From NCBI GenBank assembly GCA_963693365.1, contig CAVNZM010000008.1:4736310-4800309 (forward strand): 64,000 nt of DNA. Reading direction: 5' to 3'. Shown one piece after another: positions 147-63,314 of this stretch. A program made the translations under genes and the position numbers. Source of the DNA: Amoebidium appalachense (taxonomy: Eukaryota > Protista > Ichthyosporea). Positions within the stretch are counted from its first letter, which is position 1, and the number at the start of each line of letters is the position of its first letter. The notes under the pieces are model-generated. The model did no database searches, had not been told where the DNA came from, and was given only the letters and a program-made list of their open reading frames with translations.

Positions 147-18322
<18,176 letters not shown>

Positions 18323-33941: not shown

Positions 33942-42747
<8,806 letters not shown>

Positions 42748-43224: not shown

Positions 43225-43422
43225 ATGAGTCGAGGGGCGGTTAGGACGACGCCAGATGGCAAGAAAGTGGTATGTTTCAGTCCTACTGCTTCTTTCGTCC
43301 CGTCCCTTCCTCTGACCTGTGCCTGTGTTTTTTTGCCTTTTTCCTGGCTTGTTGTGCTCCAGGGGCAATCTCTTTGTTGTGGAGTGTGTGGCTTGCTTTT
43401 ATAAGTGATGGTAATAGTGTTA

Positions 43423-43499
<77 letters not shown>

Positions 43500-44043
43500 G
43501 GGAGAGAGAGGGAGACAGAGGAAGGTGGGAGAGCGAGAGATTTGGAGGGAGGGAGGTAGGGAGGGAAGGAGGGAGGGAGTGAGGAGAGGGAATAGGAGGG
43601 ATAAGAGAGAGAGAGTGATAGAGAGAGATGGAAACGGAGAGAGGGAGAGGGACACAGTCCTTTGCTTATATGTGTCGAGGGAAGCAGAGAGTCAGGAAGG
43701 TGATGGGACACGGGTTGGGGGGTGGGTGGTTGCTGTTTGTGTGTGGTGGGGTTTGGGAGGTGGGGGTGGGGGCTGGGGAGGCGGGGGTAGGGTAGGGGGG
43801 GCTGGGTGGGTGTTTGTGTGTGTGTTTGGGGAGGGGGGGGGGGGGGGGGTTGGCAGGTGGGACATAGCTCGAGAATTCGTTTCGTATTATGGCAATCACG
43901 TTGCCATAATACTAACTATTCACACCCACAACCACACGCAACCACACGCACACGTGCGAACAAGCGCACACATGCGTATACACGCACGGAAAGCAGCATG
44001 TTCGTGCATGCCTGCGTCCAGCACGTCTGCGTATATTTGTGAC

Positions 44044-44101
<58 letters not shown>

Positions 44102-44217
44102 AACACAAACGCACAGAATTTGGAGCTGTTCGTGCTCACATACGGAGCGCTAGTAGCTCAGCTTCTGAAAGACACGGGGGATGAGGAGACAGTCAACAAA
44201 ACTCTCGACAGCATGTA

Positions 44218-44254
<37 letters not shown>

Positions 44255-44339
44255 GGGAAAGCATCACCCGTGCTCGTGGGCACACACTATGCACATGCGC
44301 AAGCACACGCACACCCACAGATGCGTGCATGCACACACA

Positions 44340-44422
<83 letters not shown>

Positions 44423-44649
44423 CACAAAACACACATGAGTACAGGCAAAGAGACATGCACACTTCAAAAATATACGGGAAGGGGGGGCGGGGAGGGGGAA
44501 GGATGCTTTCTCTCTCCCCATCCTTCCTTGCTGCATTCTCGGTGCTGTCTTTTTGCTGTCTCCTGGGTCGTGCATGTCATTGTGCTAGTGTGTGCCCTGT
44601 GTTGTTGTACACAATGTTTACCCCCCTCCAACCTCTCTCCAACCCTCCC

Positions 44650-44680
<31 letters not shown>

Positions 44681-45794
44681 CCCCTCCCTCCCTCCCTCCC
44701 TCTCTCTCTGTCTCTCCCTCTCCCCACGCCTTCCCTCCGCCCCTCCTTCCTCCCTCATTCCCTCCCCCAACCCTCCCCCCTCCCCGTCGTAAAAACATAC
44801 TTCATACCCTGTAACACATTTTTACCCCCCCCCCCCCCCCCCCCCCCCCCCCAACCGTTCCAGTGGATACAGCATGGGTACCCGACTAGCCGAAGACTTT
44901 CTTTCCCGTATTGCCATCAGCCGGTGTACAGAGTTCAAAGAGACGGCAGAGGTGCTAACAAAGGTGGGTCCCTGGATATATCTAGGACGGGATACCTTCT
45001 ATCTTCTTGTTCGATGTGGTTTGTTTGCACATCTGTAATATTTGGAAATTTCATCCGGGATAGTTTGGCATATTTGGTAATTTCATCCGGGATAGTTTGG
45101 CATATTCGGTAGTTTCATTCGGGATAGTTTGACATTCTCCTCATTCAAACCGTGGACTGCTCATTTAGGTCGGTTAACGTTATGTGATTAGTGATTTGAT
45201 GTTTTTTTCCATGTGGGTTGTGTTTTTTTTGTGATAGTTCATAATTTACCGTGGGCTATTTTGATGTGTTATACAAGAAGAGTTTTTTGTTTTCAATTGG
45301 GATAGTTAGATGGTTGCCCCCAAGAGATCTTGTTACTACCTCGGGATAGTTAGAGATTCGTGTGTGGAATATTGGTATGTTTCTTGGCGGACAATTTGAT
45401 TATCGTGATGGGAGCAGAGAGAGGGTGAGAGAGGGTGTGTGTGGGTGTGTGGGTATGTCTTATCTTTCCTCCTTGTCTTTTATCCTTATCTTTCCCTTTT
45501 TTTTTTCTTTTTTTTTTGGGGGGGGGGGGGGGGGCGGAGGGGGGGGGGGGATGTCGATTCCGGTTCTATAATCGTGCATTACTTCTGCTTTATTTAGGGG
45601 CCATTGATGCATGTCATACCCCCCCCCTCCCCCCTCCCGCCCACCGTTCCACTCTCCCCCCCCTCCCCTCCCTCGTTCCTTCTAGTGTATTGATGTCCGC
45701 AAAAGCAAGAATTGCTTTCTTGTAATCTGCGTTTGCAGCACACAGGGTGTGTGCGCGCGGACACACACACACACATAAACGCGCTATCACCAAT

Positions 45795-45830
<36 letters not shown>

Positions 45831-47242
45831 GGCACTGTTCAAGTGTCTTCTGCCTGCACACTTCTCATTTTTGTGACGTTTTTGTTGTTGCTCTTTGTTG
45901 TCTCCTCCATATCTCCAAGCCTCTAACGCATACATCCCCCCCCCCCCCCCCCCCCCCGGGGGCTGGCAGCAGGTCCTTCTCACTGCGCCTTTAACACTCC
46001 CGTGCTCTTGAGCTCCACCCCCCCATATCCCGTCCCGTGTTCCTTTTTGACTCTGTCCCACTTTCCCCTTCTTCGGTCCTCCCCGTCCCTGCCTCTGTTT
46101 CTCCCCTCCTTCCCCCCCCCCCCCCTCCCCCCCCCTCTCTCGGGTTCTGTGGATGACCTGGGCCCCCCCTGAGGATGGGCTCTGCTTATTATGCATACTC
46201 TTTATGTATGGTTTGCATTCTGCATCGTGTTGTCCGTTGTTCTTGTGTACTTCGTACTTTATGTCGCATTTAAACCCCCCTCTCTTTCTCTATATACATC
46301 CCCCCTTTGTAGAAGCCCGGCTTATGCTCTACTTCTCTGCTTGTTTTCTTAGTTTTTTGCCTGCTTGCAGTTTTTGTAGACTCTATTTTCTGATTGCTGC
46401 TCCTTGAACAACCCTGCTCGTCTTTGGCCAAGACGGGTAGACTCGCCTATTGCTGTTGAAACAAAGTATGGGTTGGGAACCACACGCGAAAGGTTAAAGA
46501 GTCGAAACCCATGCTTTTGTGGAGACATAGGAACCCCCCTGATGATGGGCTCTGTTCAAGTGTCTCCTGCTTGCACGCTTAATTAGTTTGATTTTGGATT
46601 TCCCACTTTTGTAACGTTTTGTTGATGCTCGTTGTTGTCTCCTCCATATTTCCTACCCTCTAACGCATACATCACCCCCCCCCTCCCCCCCCCCCCCCCC
46701 CCCCCCCTTCTCTCTCCCTTTTTCTCTCTTACCTCGTCTCTCGCTGTCTCTCTTTTTCTCTCTCTCTGCCCCCTCTCTGCCCTCCCCCCCCCCCCCCCCC
46801 CCCCCCCCGGGGAATAGGTCGAAACTCGGGTACTGTGGATGACGTGGGCCCCCCCTGAGGATGGGCTCTGCTTATTATGCATACTCTTTATGTATGGCTT
46901 GCATTCTGCATCGTGTTATCCGTTTGTTCTTGTGTACTTCGTACTTTTTGACGCATTCAAAACCCCCCCCCGACCCCCGCCCCCCTCCGCCTCTTCCATT
47001 TCTGTTCATTATTATTTCCTGCCTGTGTTTTTTGACTTTTGGACTTCGTCTTCCGTGTCTTTATCTTTGTATTATTCAATGACCTCGCATTCATGGACAC
47101 CACATACTGACGGACACATTACTCCCTCCTCCCCCTCTTCCCCCCTCCCCATTCCTCCCTCCCTTGCTCCCTCTCACTCCCTCCGTCCGTCCGTTCCCCC
47201 CCCCAACCCCCACCCCTCACTTCCTCTTTCTTTCCCTCTCCC

Positions 47243-47297
<55 letters not shown>

Positions 47298-48877
47298 ACA
47301 CACCAGACGTTATTCAGCATGTACATGGGCATACAACCACCAGTCACAAACTGGAGTGAAGACAGCAAAGAGTTCTCAGTTCTGCTCCCAGACAACCCCA
47401 TGAACGACTTTATCGAACTGCCCCCAAACCACACAAAGATTCTGTTTTCAAACGTCATTGCCGGAATATTGAGAGGCGGGTTGGAAGCGGTATAGAACCC
47501 CCCTCCTCCCCCCCCCCCCCCCCCCCTCCTCTCCCCCCCTTCCACTCCTCCTTCGCATCTTTCCCCCCCCCCCCCCCTCCCCCTCCCCCACCACCACCAC
47601 CACTACCACCACCCCCCCCCCCCCCCCCCTCCCCCTCCCCCCACCACCACCACCACTACCACCCCCCCCCCCAGACATCTTTACTTCCATGCAACCGGGC
47701 ATGGTTGCTCTGTGTCGTGCATCTGTAAGCACATACGCGTTTGTCGCTGCACTGCATTAGTTTGCACACACATCTTCACCGTTTTGCTCACCTTGCTTGC
47801 ATAAGCAACCCTGCTCGTCTTTGATCAAGACGGGTTGACCCACCCAAGTTCAGTTGATGCTGCTGTCTGAGTTGGAGCGTCGTATATACGCGGGCTAAGG
47901 GGTCGAAACTCAGACGCAATTGATGACTTGGGCCCTCCCTGAGGATGGGCTCTGCTTATGACGCATACTGTGCGCATGGCTGATGCTGCATACTTGAATG
48001 TTTGCCTTTGCATGTGTCCTGCATCATGCTTCTCATCGTCTATGCGTACTTCGTACTGTGTTCCGCATTCAAACCCCCCTGTCTTCTTTCAGAGGTGTCC
48101 TTTCAGGACAGACCACTGTGTGGAGACATCTTTACTTCCATGCAACCGGGCATGGTTGCTCTGTGTCGTGCATCTGTAAGCACATACGCGTTTGTCGCTG
48201 CACTGCATTAGTTTGCACACACATCTTCACCGTTTTGCTCACCTTGCTTGCATAAGCAACCCTGCTCGTCTTTGATCAAGACGGGTTGACCCACCCAAGT
48301 TCAGTTGATGCTGCTGTCTGAGTTGGAGCGTCGTATATACGCGGGCTAAGGGGTCGAAACTCAGACGCAATTGATGACTTGGGCCCTCCCTGAGGATGGG
48401 CTCTGCTTATGACGCATACTGTGCGCATGGCTGATGCTGCATACTTGAATGTTTGCCTTTGCATGTGTCCTGCATCATGCTTCTCATCGTCTATGCGTAC
48501 TTCGTACTGTGTTCCGCATTCAAACCCCCCCCCCCCCCCCTCCTCCCTCCCCCCGTTTTCTCCCTCTGGCTCCCCCCACCCCTTAAAAAGAAAACAATGA
48601 AAGAAACAAAAGGAAAAGAGTACAAATGATTAAGAAAGCGGTATTTGAATTGGGCTTCGTGTTCTTGGATGAGTGAGTTGAGACTCGGAAACTATGGATG
48701 GCTTGGGTATTGATTAGTAGATTTGCCTACTCCTTTTGCTTGTTCGTGTGTGTGTGTTCTGTCTGGTATATCTTCATGTGTGTCGTTGCTTTGAGTATGT
48801 TCTAGCACTATGTATCATTCGACCATTCGAACTCCCTCTCCCTTCCCCCCCCCCCTCCTCCCCCCCCCCCCCCCCCT

Positions 48878-48915
<38 letters not shown>

Positions 48916-48994
48916 AACCCCTCCCTTGAAGGATAGTTGGTACTACTTATGCCGCACACACATATATGTGGTTCGTTGTTCTACGCATCCCCCC

Positions 48995-49025
<31 letters not shown>

Positions 49026-49104
49026 AAAAAAAAAAAAAAAGAAAACACATACACACACACACACACACCCTTTCTGTGTCAGAAATTGGTCTCTTTTTTT
49101 CTTT

Positions 49105-49144
<40 letters not shown>

Positions 49145-49671
49145 TGTTTGTTTTTTGTTTTTGTTTTTTGGAGTTTGCCGAACGAACATCATGCAGATGC
49201 TTTCAATGGATATGCTCTATTCAGTATACCACAATGAGAGAACTATCTTGCCTTATTTCTCTGAAACCTCATTTGGTTCCTCGTGAAGCAGCCGATTGCC
49301 TGAACCCTTTTGCAGTACATTAGCGACCCTCTTTCTTTTTTGTCTCCTTTTTTCTTTCTTTTTTTTTTTCCCCTCTCCTCTCTCTCTTCCCCTTTGGGCT
49401 TCCTTGCTTGAATTTTTGTTGATTGTCAAGCCTCCCCCTCCAAATATCTCCTTTTTTTTTAATTTCGTTTTCTTCTCTTCTCTTTCCACCAATATCCCAA
49501 CTTTGCCGCCAAGTAACTATCTCACATGGTTTGAATTTTCCAATTTTTCAGATGCAGCTAAAATGCGATGTGTGGTTCGTGCAAGACGTACTCCGTGGGG
49601 ACAAGGAGACGGAAATCAGGCTGAGGCTCAAAGAAGTTCTTGATGACGAGGTACCCCCAAGCGACGACTGA
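43225..49671 (+). CDS. BET3: TRAPP complex subunit Bet3/TRAPPC3, 181 aa, 5 exons
   Basis: Exons 43225-43269, 44117-44214, 44864-44963, 47307-47489, 49552-49671 give KKVNLELFVLTYGALVAQLLKD...VNKTLDSIGYSMGTRLAEDFLSR...RCTEFKETAEVL...DNPMNDFIELP...FSNVIAGILRGGLEAMQ...FVQDVLRGDKETEIRLRL...EVPPSDD*. Confidence 0.97.
45038..45133. repeat. 32-bp tandem repeat, 3 copies
   Basis: atatttggtaatttcatccgggatagtttggc, three copies with few substitutions. Confidence 0.9.
45836..46970 (+). repeat. Alternating B-A-B-A tandem array of the hammerhead-like repeat family (BET3 intron 3)
   Basis: CTGA(G/T)GAtgggctct at 46169, 46539 and 46855. gtcGAAAC at 46501 and 46818. A-type bodies after 46169 and 46855 are near-identical, and B-type bodies at 45836 and 46552 are similar. 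Confidence 0.9.
46445..46553 (+). ncRNA. Candidate permuted hammerhead ribozyme, copy 1
   Basis: Stem III aaagtatgggt (46463-73) pairs with acccatgcttt (46507-17). GUU site ends at 46474. Stem I ggg/ccc. GAAA at 46504-07. CTGATGA at 46539-45. Stem II ggctct (46548-53) / agagtc (46498-503). Confidence 0.65.
47843..47953 (+). ncRNA. Candidate permuted hammerhead ribozyme, copy 2
   Basis: Stem III gtctgagt (47865-72) / actcagac (47908-15). GUU ends at 47873. Stem I ggag (47874-77) / ctcc (47935-38). GAAA at 47905-08. CTGAGGA at 47939-45. Stem II ggctct / ggggtc is rich in G-U pairs. Confidence 0.65.
48294..48404 (+). ncRNA. Candidate permuted hammerhead ribozyme, copy 3 (same sequence as copy 2)
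   Basis: Same motifs shifted by 451 nt: GUU ends at 48324, GAAA at 48356-59, CTGAGGA at 48390-96. Confidence 0.65.
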
Positions 49672-59200: not shown

Positions 59201-61638
59201 TGGTTAAAGTGGTGGTTGTGGTTGTGGTTGTGGTGGCTGCGGTGCTTTTCTTTTTTTTTTTTTTGTTTTTCTTTCTTTCTTCTTTTCTTTTTCTTTTTCC
59301 TTTTCTTTCCTTTCCTTTTTCTTTTTCTTTCTTTCTTTTTTTTTGTGGGGGGGAGGGGTCAGTTGTGTGTGTTGGGAAGCGGGGGGATGGGCAGGTGTGT
59401 GTGTTTAAAATGTTTTTTTTTTTTTTTTTTTTTGATCGTGTCTTTTAAAGGGGGTTTCGTTTAGGCCCATTAATTGTCCCCATTCCAGCACATCCGGGTC
59501 AAGCCATTTGCTCAGCATATAAATCATGATATGAACTGCAACCTTCTTCCTAACTCTTTATTAATGTTATTCCCTTCTTTCTTTCTTTCTTTTTCCTCTT
59601 TTCTTTTTCTCTTTAGTTGTATTATGGCGCATCTGAACCTTGCTGTGGGCAAAACGATGGTGCGCAGCTGATGCGCAGCACGCCGTTCAGATAGCTAGAA
59701 TTCCCTCTGACCCGACCCGGCTCGAAAGTCTAAAAGAAAACCCCTTTAACTTTTTGGGTCTCAAAGTCTTCGCTTCCATGTTTCCACCCGGTCCTTTAAT
59801 GCCCCCCCTCCTCCTCCCCCCCCCCCCCAAAAAAAAAAAAAAAAAAAAAAAAAAACAAAACAAACAAACCAGCCAATAAAACACAAACACCGGCCCATCC
59901 CCCGCTTCCCAAACACACACAACTGACCCCTCCCCCCCCCCCCCCCCCCCCCCTCTCCCCCCTCCCCCCCCCCCCCCAAAAAAACAATCACATCCGCATA
60001 AGATACTACTGGTACAGAGCCATGATCAGCCGGGGGGGAAGGTGTGAATGTGTGTGTGTGTGTGCGCGCGCGCGTGTATGTGTTGTGTGGTGGTGGTGGT
60101 GGTGGTGGTGGTGTGTGTGTGTGGGGGGGGGGGGGGGGGAGGGGGGGGAGGATATTTGCTTAACAGGGTGCAGCATCTGTAGCATATGTATTAGAAGGCA
60201 AAAAGAAAACACACAGCAGACACCAAAACACATGTGAGGCAGAGGACACTTAAATTCAGTGTATCTATTTTTGGGAGGCGGGAGACGACAGACAGGGAGA
60301 GGGAGAGGGAGAGTGAAGAAGGGAGGGGAGGAGCAAGAGGGAGAGGCCGAGGGAGAGAAGAAGGGGAGTGAGGGGGTCACGGTTTGGGTGTGAAGGTGGG
60401 AGGGGAAGGTGAGGAGGGGGACGTGGGGGGACTGTAGGGCAAGGGCAACGAGAGTGATGCAACCCCTTTAGCTTTGCACTCATAAATTGAAACCTTGCTA
60501 CACAGAGGGCATGAGAGAAATCTCCAACCTTACGTCAGTTGCAAACATCACCCGTGGGAAGCGAACAGACCAAAACAGGATCGGAGCTGCTGGTGCCAAT
60601 GACCGGGTTAAGGATGAAGAATGTAAACGTAAAAGGGCGGGATCTATGTGGTGCCAACGTAGTTAGGATAAGTCGAGTGTACGAGGTGATGCAGTGTTTT
60701 TGTAGATAGTGGTGGTGGTGTGGGTGTGGATGTGGGTGTGTGTGTTTAATGGAGCGGGGGGGGGGGGGGGGGGGAGGGGGGTGGGGGGGGAGGACGGACG
60801 GGTGGGGGTGGGTGGGTGGGTGGATGGGAGTGTGGGAACGAGAGTGGGTGGGTGGGAGGGACGGAGGAAGGGTGGGGGGAGGGGGGGGGGGGGAAGGTGC
60901 TGGCAGACAGAGCAGAATAAATGACACAAGGAAAAGATGCTGCTTATATGTAAGAATCTCCACGCACGTTTCTTGCTGTTGTTGGAGTTGTGGATGTGGA
61001 GATTTTGCGCTTGCAGGACGTGCTTTTTTCTGTCCGCAACAAAAGGGTCTCTGGTAAGGCAGCATAAAAGCTTAATACAGTAGGTGAATATTAGATCTCA
61101 CACCAGATTAAGATGATTTCCCTCTTACCCTCAGGGGATACTTGCAAAATTTGCATAGGTAGTTTTAGGACTTTTGTCTACCTTGCCTAAGAGCCGAAGC
61201 GGCTCACTTGCGCACTACATTAAACTTGCTGTACCCAACCTTCTAGCTCTTATTTTTCAAGGCTGACAAAACTTTCCTTCCGAAGCGACGTGATCACGCG
61301 CCAACTCATACCCTTATAGTTTATCATACGGCAGCTGCGGCCACAGTCGCACGTGGCAGGTACACAACGGTAAACAAAAATCTTTTTGAGTGTCACACAA
61401 TCAGTGGCAATAATTGCAAGGAATCGCCTTTAGATTCCGTTTAGAGCAACTATAGAACTATAGGCAGAGCTGGTAAAGGACAACATAATACTTATACCCA
61501 CAGGGGAACCTAGACATCACTGCAATCGTGGAAGGGTTTAAAGATTACCCCGCTCAGTTAACTGCAAAGTAGTTCAGGTCTCCTGGTTTGCTAAATACTT
61601 AAGTTTTGAGAAGCAAGTTATTCGCGTAAAACATTACC

Positions 61639-63314
<1,676 letters not shown>

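Follow-up and report, generated by a model that had tools for sequence, protein, structure and literature searches.

Type SGC hammerheads (HRIMA-1 and its variants; Eckert et al. 2023, PMC10085705) carry all core letters in the block order S-G-C, with a 3-4 nt link into stem II and a helix that joins the far ends of stems I and II. The repeat described here has the block order, the core letters and the short link, and its outer helix is a candidate for the joining helix. In the excerpts available of that paper, cleavage depends on the joining helix and some members have no linker between stem III and helix I; the word 'dimer' is absent from its main text. Non-LTR retrozymes, as presented in parts of Cervera and de la Pena 2020 (PMC7229834), likewise consist of non-coding tandem units of a few hundred bases and, in parts of that paper and of the Li et al. 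2026 preprint, have in common with the repeat one ribozyme per unit, a self-paired fold and many truncated copies. However, their ribozymes are type I hammerheads, whereas the repeat has the S-G-C order, and circular RNA has been demonstrated for them, whereas the repeat is known here from sequence alone.

The dimeric double hammerheads of newt and axolotl satellites and the minimal Penelope hammerheads follow a like logic in the excerpts of PMC4209133 and PMC7229834, as the monomer is poor, the dimer is active and circles are proposed to be spared. These forms dimerise through a weak palindromic stem III (1-2 bp in the minimal dimeric Penelope hammerhead), whereas stem III of the repeat is strong, lies within the unit and comprises 8 bp plus an extension, which agrees with an earlier note that set this locus apart from the palindromic-stem-III dimer; a domain swap in the repeat would involve stems I and II instead. 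The repeat appears, from its sequence, to work like a hammerhead in a retrozyme without being a type I retrozyme or a minimal palindromic dimer. Finally, the Penelope-like Naiads were reported to have no canonical hammerhead, only 'HHR_core' and 'HHR_half_core', and Chlamys to favour (C)n and (CA)n as insertion targets, with head-to-tail derivatives that are non-autonomous (in the parts available of Craig et al. 2021, PMC8557442); the repeat may be akin to these elements, as its copies end in poly-C tracts and its wiring matches, by eye, that of seven Naiad records.

The repeat and its copies

The window (the whole 64,000-nucleotide stretch analysed) contains a repeat of 451 bp in two exact tandem copies (407 of 407 bases identical) with diverged relatives nearby. 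The insertion amounts to 1.9 units (47673-48530), runs into a poly-C tract where the unit has its own C-run and lies on the sense strand in an intron of the BET3/TRAPPC3 gene, directly after one of its exons. The unit is a non-coding tandem element of retrozyme-like size (150-450 bp or so) with one ribozyme domain each. Relatives are clustered at 45831-46970, with others elsewhere in the window; subfamily A is represented by the complete domain at 46403-46560, B by the tandem and C by truncated copies.

46139..46280 (+), 5'-truncated subfamily C copy with right arm and block C
46403..46560 (+), complete diverged domain of subfamily A ('copy 1'), identified by pairing comparison, descriptor and family variants
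46809..46970 (+), 5'-truncated subfamily C copy with block G, right arm and block C
47304..47492 (+), host-gene exon (TRAPP subunit BET3/TRAPPC3); next exon at about 49550-49668
47673..48123 (+), repeat unit 1 (subfamily B), 451 bp
48074..48079 (+), internal C-run, the copy end point within poly-C tracts and a likely priming point of target-primed reverse transcription
48124..48530 (+), repeat unit 2, exact over 407/407 bases, stopping at the unit-internal C-run in a poly-C tract

The head-to-tail joint (48123->47673) is present in 4 of the 4 sequencing runs examined, two of them DNA, and half or more of the unit's words occur in 20 of 24 listed runs from 7 studies, none of which is recorded as RNA. 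The 1338 and 1256 contigs that cover 221 bases of subfamily A in two DNA runs point to an abundant and varied family. The unit is also present in two runs guessed to be RNA, one with a high summed depth, a figure that carries no information on expression. The truncated copies of the window, which are few and were selected on block C, begin 18-65 bases beyond the predicted cleavage site and none begins at it. At 37295-37752 (-), three truncated copies (B, A and C-like) are nested with poly-C runs between them, resembling the nest at 45831-46970; on the basis of the two nests, poly-C tracts are repeatedly struck targets. More short copies with block C or its 3' side, at 6170-6206, 10826-10860 and 4116-4196 (+), probably belong to other subfamilies. 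A small perfect hairpin is predicted in the unit body at 48084-48110, close to the junction between the two copies.

The host gene extends over 43225-49668 (+) in five exons, and two of its introns are full of repeat-family copies, all on the sense strand. Its protein, which is on record in full, scores 199, 184 and 177 bits against three structures, which we take to be mammalian, yeast and fly, respectively; these matches point to a eukaryotic host that is probably not an animal, unlike the hosts of the non-LTR retrozymes. Elsewhere in the window, an exon-like stretch at 61630-61755 (+) is similar to the start of the TOR-complex subunit LST8, several exon-like stretches of one gene lie at 9540-11400 (+) with CA microsatellites between them, and 45038-45133 holds a 32-bp sequence in three tandem copies.

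A hammerhead core in split wiring

Judged by its motifs, each unit is a carrier of all hammerhead catalytic letters in a scrambled, split arrangement. The blocks are ordered S-G-C, the order of type SGC of Eckert 2023, and each of the 3 complete domains retains every core letter (CUGAnGA, GAAA and GUU, with A15.1-U16.1 and G10.1-C11.1). The parts of the first unit of the tandem are as follows, together with the second domain.

47800..47811 (+), P0 5' strand, pairs with 47947-47960 and closes the basal junction
47812..47836 (+), hairpin that, like P0, lies in the insertion separating A9 from G10.1; its loop (47821-47828) is self-complementary
47837..47841 (+), stem II 5' strand (GACCC) upstream of the cut site, 5/5 Watson-Crick with 47900-04, in A and B
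47843..47852 (+), left strand of the outer (C) helix, with 6 bp and then 3 bp on either side of a U bulge; in the position of Eckert's helix I
47853..47858 (+), bulged strand of the predicted K-turn consensus (3-nt bulge followed by G, A, U), opposite 47921-47923
47859..47877 (+), block S: NC helix, stem III strand, GUU site and stem I 3' strand, predicted cut after 47873
47878..47899 (+), S-G linker with a 10-nt palindrome at 47881-47890
47900..47915 (+), block G: stem II 3' strand, GAAA (47905-08) and stem III, found by descriptor
47916..47932 (+), extension, right arm, comprising NC, the GA of the K-turn and the C helix, from pair comparison
47935..47945 (+), block C: stem I 5' strand and CUGAGGA, found by descriptor
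47947..47960 (+), P0 3' strand, including GGCUCU (a possible alternative stem II strand), from pair comparison
48251..48411 (+), second complete ribozyme domain, every part at +451

A descriptor of site, GAAA and CUGAnGA in this order picks out 3 complete domains across the window, and in all of them block G has a 5-bp partner upstream; the same descriptor gave 1 partial and 0 complete domains on 200 shuffled windows. The strand before GAAA is variable (GAGUC, GGGUC, AGGUC) and the upstream strand covaries with it (GACUC, GACCC, GACCU, the third variant being taken from a loose end in two sequencing runs). Stem II is accordingly formed with the upstream GACYY strand, with covariation across three subfamilies and seven Naiad records. 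The downstream alternative GGCUCU is invariant, with 6/6 pairs in A and B, 0 double changes and 4/6 pairs in C, and as a fixed strand with 0 double changes it was rejected as the evolutionary partner of stem II. CUGAnGA is thus not directly (within 0-2 nt) adjoined by stem II: two helices stand between, and the covarying partner lies upstream. Block C is without the covarying stem II strand, unlike in strict type SGC, and by its sequence the repeat therefore fails as a strict member of that type. Because the covarying partner of stem II is upstream and the strand after CUGAnGA itself pairs upstream, A9 and G10.1 are separated by an insertion made up of P0 and a hairpin. P0 has 8/8 and 3/3 pairs in A and B with 3 double changes among the 8, which 18 of 5000 shuffles matched.

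Between A and B, 47 of 50 pairs are kept over ten helices, 14 of them via double changes, a count for which the bulges were placed by hand and which leaves out the K-turn pairs, the fourth stem I position (A.C in A), the sixth stem II position (purine-purine) and an extra outer pair of B. The pair counts were not derived from the MAFFT alignment, which misaligned the diverged arms. Double changes between A and B number 1/3 in stem I, 1/5 in stem II and 2/8 in stem III, with further ones in stems I-III seen by eye in subfamily C and the Naiads. A third left arm, found as a loose end in two runs, makes 23/23 pairs by eye with the window's subfamily C strands, and from this pairing fit we infer that they belong to one family; one other C copy and one loose-end variant show changes whose pairing partners are outside the visible sequence.

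The loop of the inserted hairpin is palindromic in both A and B despite two changed letters, the linker of B holds a palindrome, and the majority letter at 46484 creates one in the linker of A. These hairpin-loop and linker palindromes may aid the association of units; predicted co-folding joins units via the palindromes or via P0, a result that does not speak for function. In three runs, 30-60 in 100 of the depth at 47821 has C in place of T, a variant that enlarges the hairpin loop to 7 nt without loss of the palindrome.

By eye, seven Naiad consensus 3' ends from four groups share the split wiring among the matches listed in the PMC8557442 supplement: two octopus and three Acropora records, one near part 12 and one near part 19, with names inferred from header order. 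Their upstream stem II makes 6/6 Watson-Crick pairs and no complement follows CUGAUGA in the supplement sequences read by eye. One Naiad record near part 8 is ambiguous in wiring by the same reading, and there is no Chlamys example among the supplement matches listed. Several nematode Naiad 3' ends (parts 14-15 of the supplement) read by eye as type C-S-G hammerheads; the excerpts of Eckert et al. give that type as found only twice, in metagenomes (PMC10085705).

Other assignments were rejected: hammerhead types I, II and III, since the block order does not fit; a minus-strand hammerhead, since the descriptor finds none; and the palindromic loop as a pseudo-core. The relatives from a pattern scan (28 metagenome, 2 plus 4 viral and 0 prokaryote-genome loci) were dropped as chance, because none of the first 30 is unit-like by blastn and 0 of 34 match the descriptor.

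No Rfam family matches the window at gathering thresholds, as expected because the form is permuted. The same null result would also suit a conserved structure whose copies are without meaningful cutting, or have another role such as reverse transcriptase binding or RNA dimerising. Precedents point the same way, since the excerpts available report no cleavage for 8 of 9 predicted Xenopus retrozyme dimers (10.64898/2026.07.22.740005) and weak cutting by minimal Penelope hammerheads (PMC4209133), and copies are tolerated in the host intron. We nevertheless find this explanation doubtful, as all core letters stay intact in every complete domain though the arms have diverged.

The long helix and its kink

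The earlier note described stem III as extending into a long imperfect helix, and its coordinates are confirmed: CCCAAGTT begins at 47843, GACTTGGG occupies 47925-47932, TCAGTT lies at 47850-55 and AATTGA at 47918-23. The CUGAGGA strand indeed begins 2 nt past the base of the helix (stem I strand from 47935, C3 at 47939), about 22 pairs from GUU (47871-73), and the copy 1 pairing of ccta..tgt..acaaa with tttgt..aca.tagg was correctly drawn, as a duplex calculation shows. The claim of a long helix holds for B, where the extension beyond the 8-bp stem III is matched by only 3/5000 shuffles and 0/5000 random window stretches; for copy 1 the extension alone is not above chance (638/5000 shuffles), and the entire arm including stem III is (0/5000).

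The 'imperfect' middle of the helix fits the K-turn consensus as defined in PMC8191799: a 3-nt bulge, then tandem G.A and A.G, between two helices. The pairing of tcagtt with aattga, though correctly placed, shares U47850 with the outer helix, and by subfamily comparison is better read as this K-turn. The consensus is present in A and B and, by eye, in C; it occurs anywhere in 628 and 736 per 20000 shuffled arms (A and B), or about 3-4 in 100. At the 3b:3n position, A and C have A:G, a permissive pair in the excerpts of the K-turn literature, and B has U:U. The -1b:-1n position is A:U in B and C, a combination that folds well. The U:U of B is box C/D-like. Copy 1 has one broken pair next to the kink, a change peculiar to this copy, as the pairing letter at 46525 is found in 99 in 100 of depth. 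A K-turn bulged on the right strand was rejected, with a poor fit to B and no fit to A.

The arm from core to kink measures 13 bp in all three subfamilies despite differing bulges, its last 5 bp being unseen in C, and the C helix consists of 3 bp, a U bulge conserved in all three subfamilies and 5-6 bp. In A and B the K-turn stands 16 bp from the core and the return arm has 8-9 bp. Going by the PMC8557442 supplement excerpts, the Naiad arms are shorter (proximal 5-12 bp; proximal/distal arms 5/8 in octopus, 6/8, 12/10 and 10/5, versus 16/8-9 in the repeat), and the octopus K-turn is oriented opposite to that of the repeat.

Predicted folding depends on context. Stem III of B reaches a probability of 0.99 in the local domain and in the circle, 0.37 in the tandem and 0.01 with poly-C flanks, and it is 0.0 for the whole of copy 1; we read the value of 0.37 as reflecting alternation with an inter-unit register. 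Stem I is only 3-4 bp long, and its 5' strand in B is predicted to be mostly in a local hairpin (unpaired 0.11-0.16).

Closing the core within or between units

In hammerheads, stem II is stacked coaxially on stem III. In the repeat, the outer helix is connected to the far end of stem II through one nucleotide, has the connectivity of a helix joining stems I and II, and covaries. In a stick model that assumes 2.8 Å per pair, a 9 Å radius, 6.5 Å per step and 50 degrees, the minimum gap in A and B with helices intact is 37-38 Å versus a linker reach of 13 Å; thus an intact unit would not close its own core, and inter-unit docking becomes the most likely route. The proposal that a unit's own CUGAnGA strand is out of reach therefore stands in the model for intact helices (37 Å versus 13 Å), whereas a partly open unit can close: with the outer helix of B open, the gap is 44 Å and the reach 58 Å. 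An 'obligate' inter-unit ribozyme, as first proposed, is for this reason more than the model allows, since opening the outer 6 bp makes closure in cis possible.

We propose, at a probability of roughly 45%, that a unit inserts its top loop into the basal junction of a second unit and that this docking is likely required for cutting. Each unit would fold into a kinked rod whose top carries the cut site together with GAAA and whose base carries CUGAnGA and the stem II strand; the RNA would be made and would cut while the outer helix stays paired as a bridging helix between stems I and II. Because that helix would bridge and stay paired, a lone folded unit or circle should be resistant, and tandem or rolling transcripts would be cut to unit length. 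A Penelope-like reverse transcriptase of Naiad/Chlamys type could then copy the circles back into poly-C targets, starting at the internal C-run. As the upstream stem II and P0 strands are needed, the docking partner would be the whole basal junction (47800-47842 plus 47933-47960); the earlier suggestion that a neighbour completes the core is retained as the most likely route, and its strand 47933-47953 would be insufficient alone. An oligonucleotide of that strand added in trans could cut through an alternative GGCUCU/GGGGUC stem and mislead.

Docking between units is favoured because type SGC cannot do without the helix in this position, because in all examples read only 1-4 nt part it from either stem, and because the arm lengths vary without the balance that a fold-back in cis would need. 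A close rival, which we consider possible and hold tentatively, is that the split core cuts in cis during transcription and the outer helix zips afterwards, locking the monomer or circle off. GACCC/GGGUC would pair once block G is made, stem III and the kink would follow, the outer 5-6 bp would stay open as linkers and block C would complete the core. The transcription order of the parts (X, S, G, right arm, C) suits such a sequence of events, the modelled linkers reach with the outer helix open (58 Å versus 44 Å), the U bulge conserved in three subfamilies divides the C helix into an inner 3 bp and an outer 5-6 bp, and the K-turn would direct the linkers back to stems I and II. Transient folding during synthesis is, moreover, a known viroid strategy. 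However, the outer helix would have to open, at a price of 11.4 kcal/mol in B (4.3 kcal/mol in copy 1), and its 1-4 nt linkers to both stem strands in every example resemble those of a bridging helix.

Alternatively, the K-turn, with or without a protein of the 15.5K/L7Ae family, might fold the intact rod back for monomer cutting in cis, the stick model being too stiff. The short-armed octopus Naiad form, with a modelled gap of 12 Å and a reach of 20 Å, agrees with this, and Eckert et al. allow in the excerpts available that helix lengths and angles may still suffice in linker-less SGC members (PMC10085705). Even at an angle of 0 degrees, however, the axis gap in the repeat is still 42-45 Å, and its proximal arm is 11 bp longer than that of the octopus form with a return arm equal in length, so we regard folding of the intact rod in cis as very improbable.

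Our confidence in docking between units is restrained by the co-transcriptional route, the cis-compatible octopus form, the weak stem I, the context-dependent folding and the tolerance of the intron. The geometry comes from a stick model whose rise, radius and angle are assumptions; closure in cis fits once the outer helix is open, at only 4.3 kcal/mol in copy 1; and one record of the octopus form, which fits folding in cis, is annotated 'no pLTR'. Stem I is weak, and bringing a unit into a docking-ready state costs 9.5-13.5 kcal/mol; for closure of a partly open unit, the price of opening the outer helix comes on top of 9.5-11.8 kcal/mol for freeing the docking strands. A further point against docking between units is that the tandem occupies the sense strand of an intron in a conserved trafficking gene, so that cutting triggered by the tandem would, if efficient, break the host pre-mRNA. 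The two helices between A9 and G10.1 also exceed the insertion of 1-2 nt known in hammerheads.

A bolder extension of docking between units, unlikely in our judgement, is a domain-swapping ribozyme in which each unit donates its substrate loop to the split core of the next and folded monomers are inactive. Rods of 33-34 bp from core to core (three helical turns) with K-turns of about 50 degrees could close two- or three-membered rings, perhaps nucleated by the palindromic loops, and such a self-assembling RNA polygon would meter unit-length RNA and be the missing Naiad/Chlamys-type ribozyme.

We found no publication with the split-core wiring, in a literature search light on subscription journals. 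Dimer-dependent cleavage that spares circles is already established in the excerpts of PMC4209133, and the 'copy-number sensor' proposed for this locus restates that idea of cleavage in multimers and its avoidance in circular monomers; a swap of stems I and II instead of stem III would be new. If a second unit is needed through stems I and II, this would be a second, independent route to dimer dependence in hammerheads, and cutting between units, if true, would bear on the puzzle of type SGC geometry left by Eckert et al. If cutting is instead transient in cis, the repeat would still possess a natural built-in off-switch. As read from its motifs, the repeat extends non-circular permutation of the hammerhead from environmental RNA to a eukaryotic genome, and it provides a candidate ribozyme for a large group of retroelements reported to be without canonical hammerheads.
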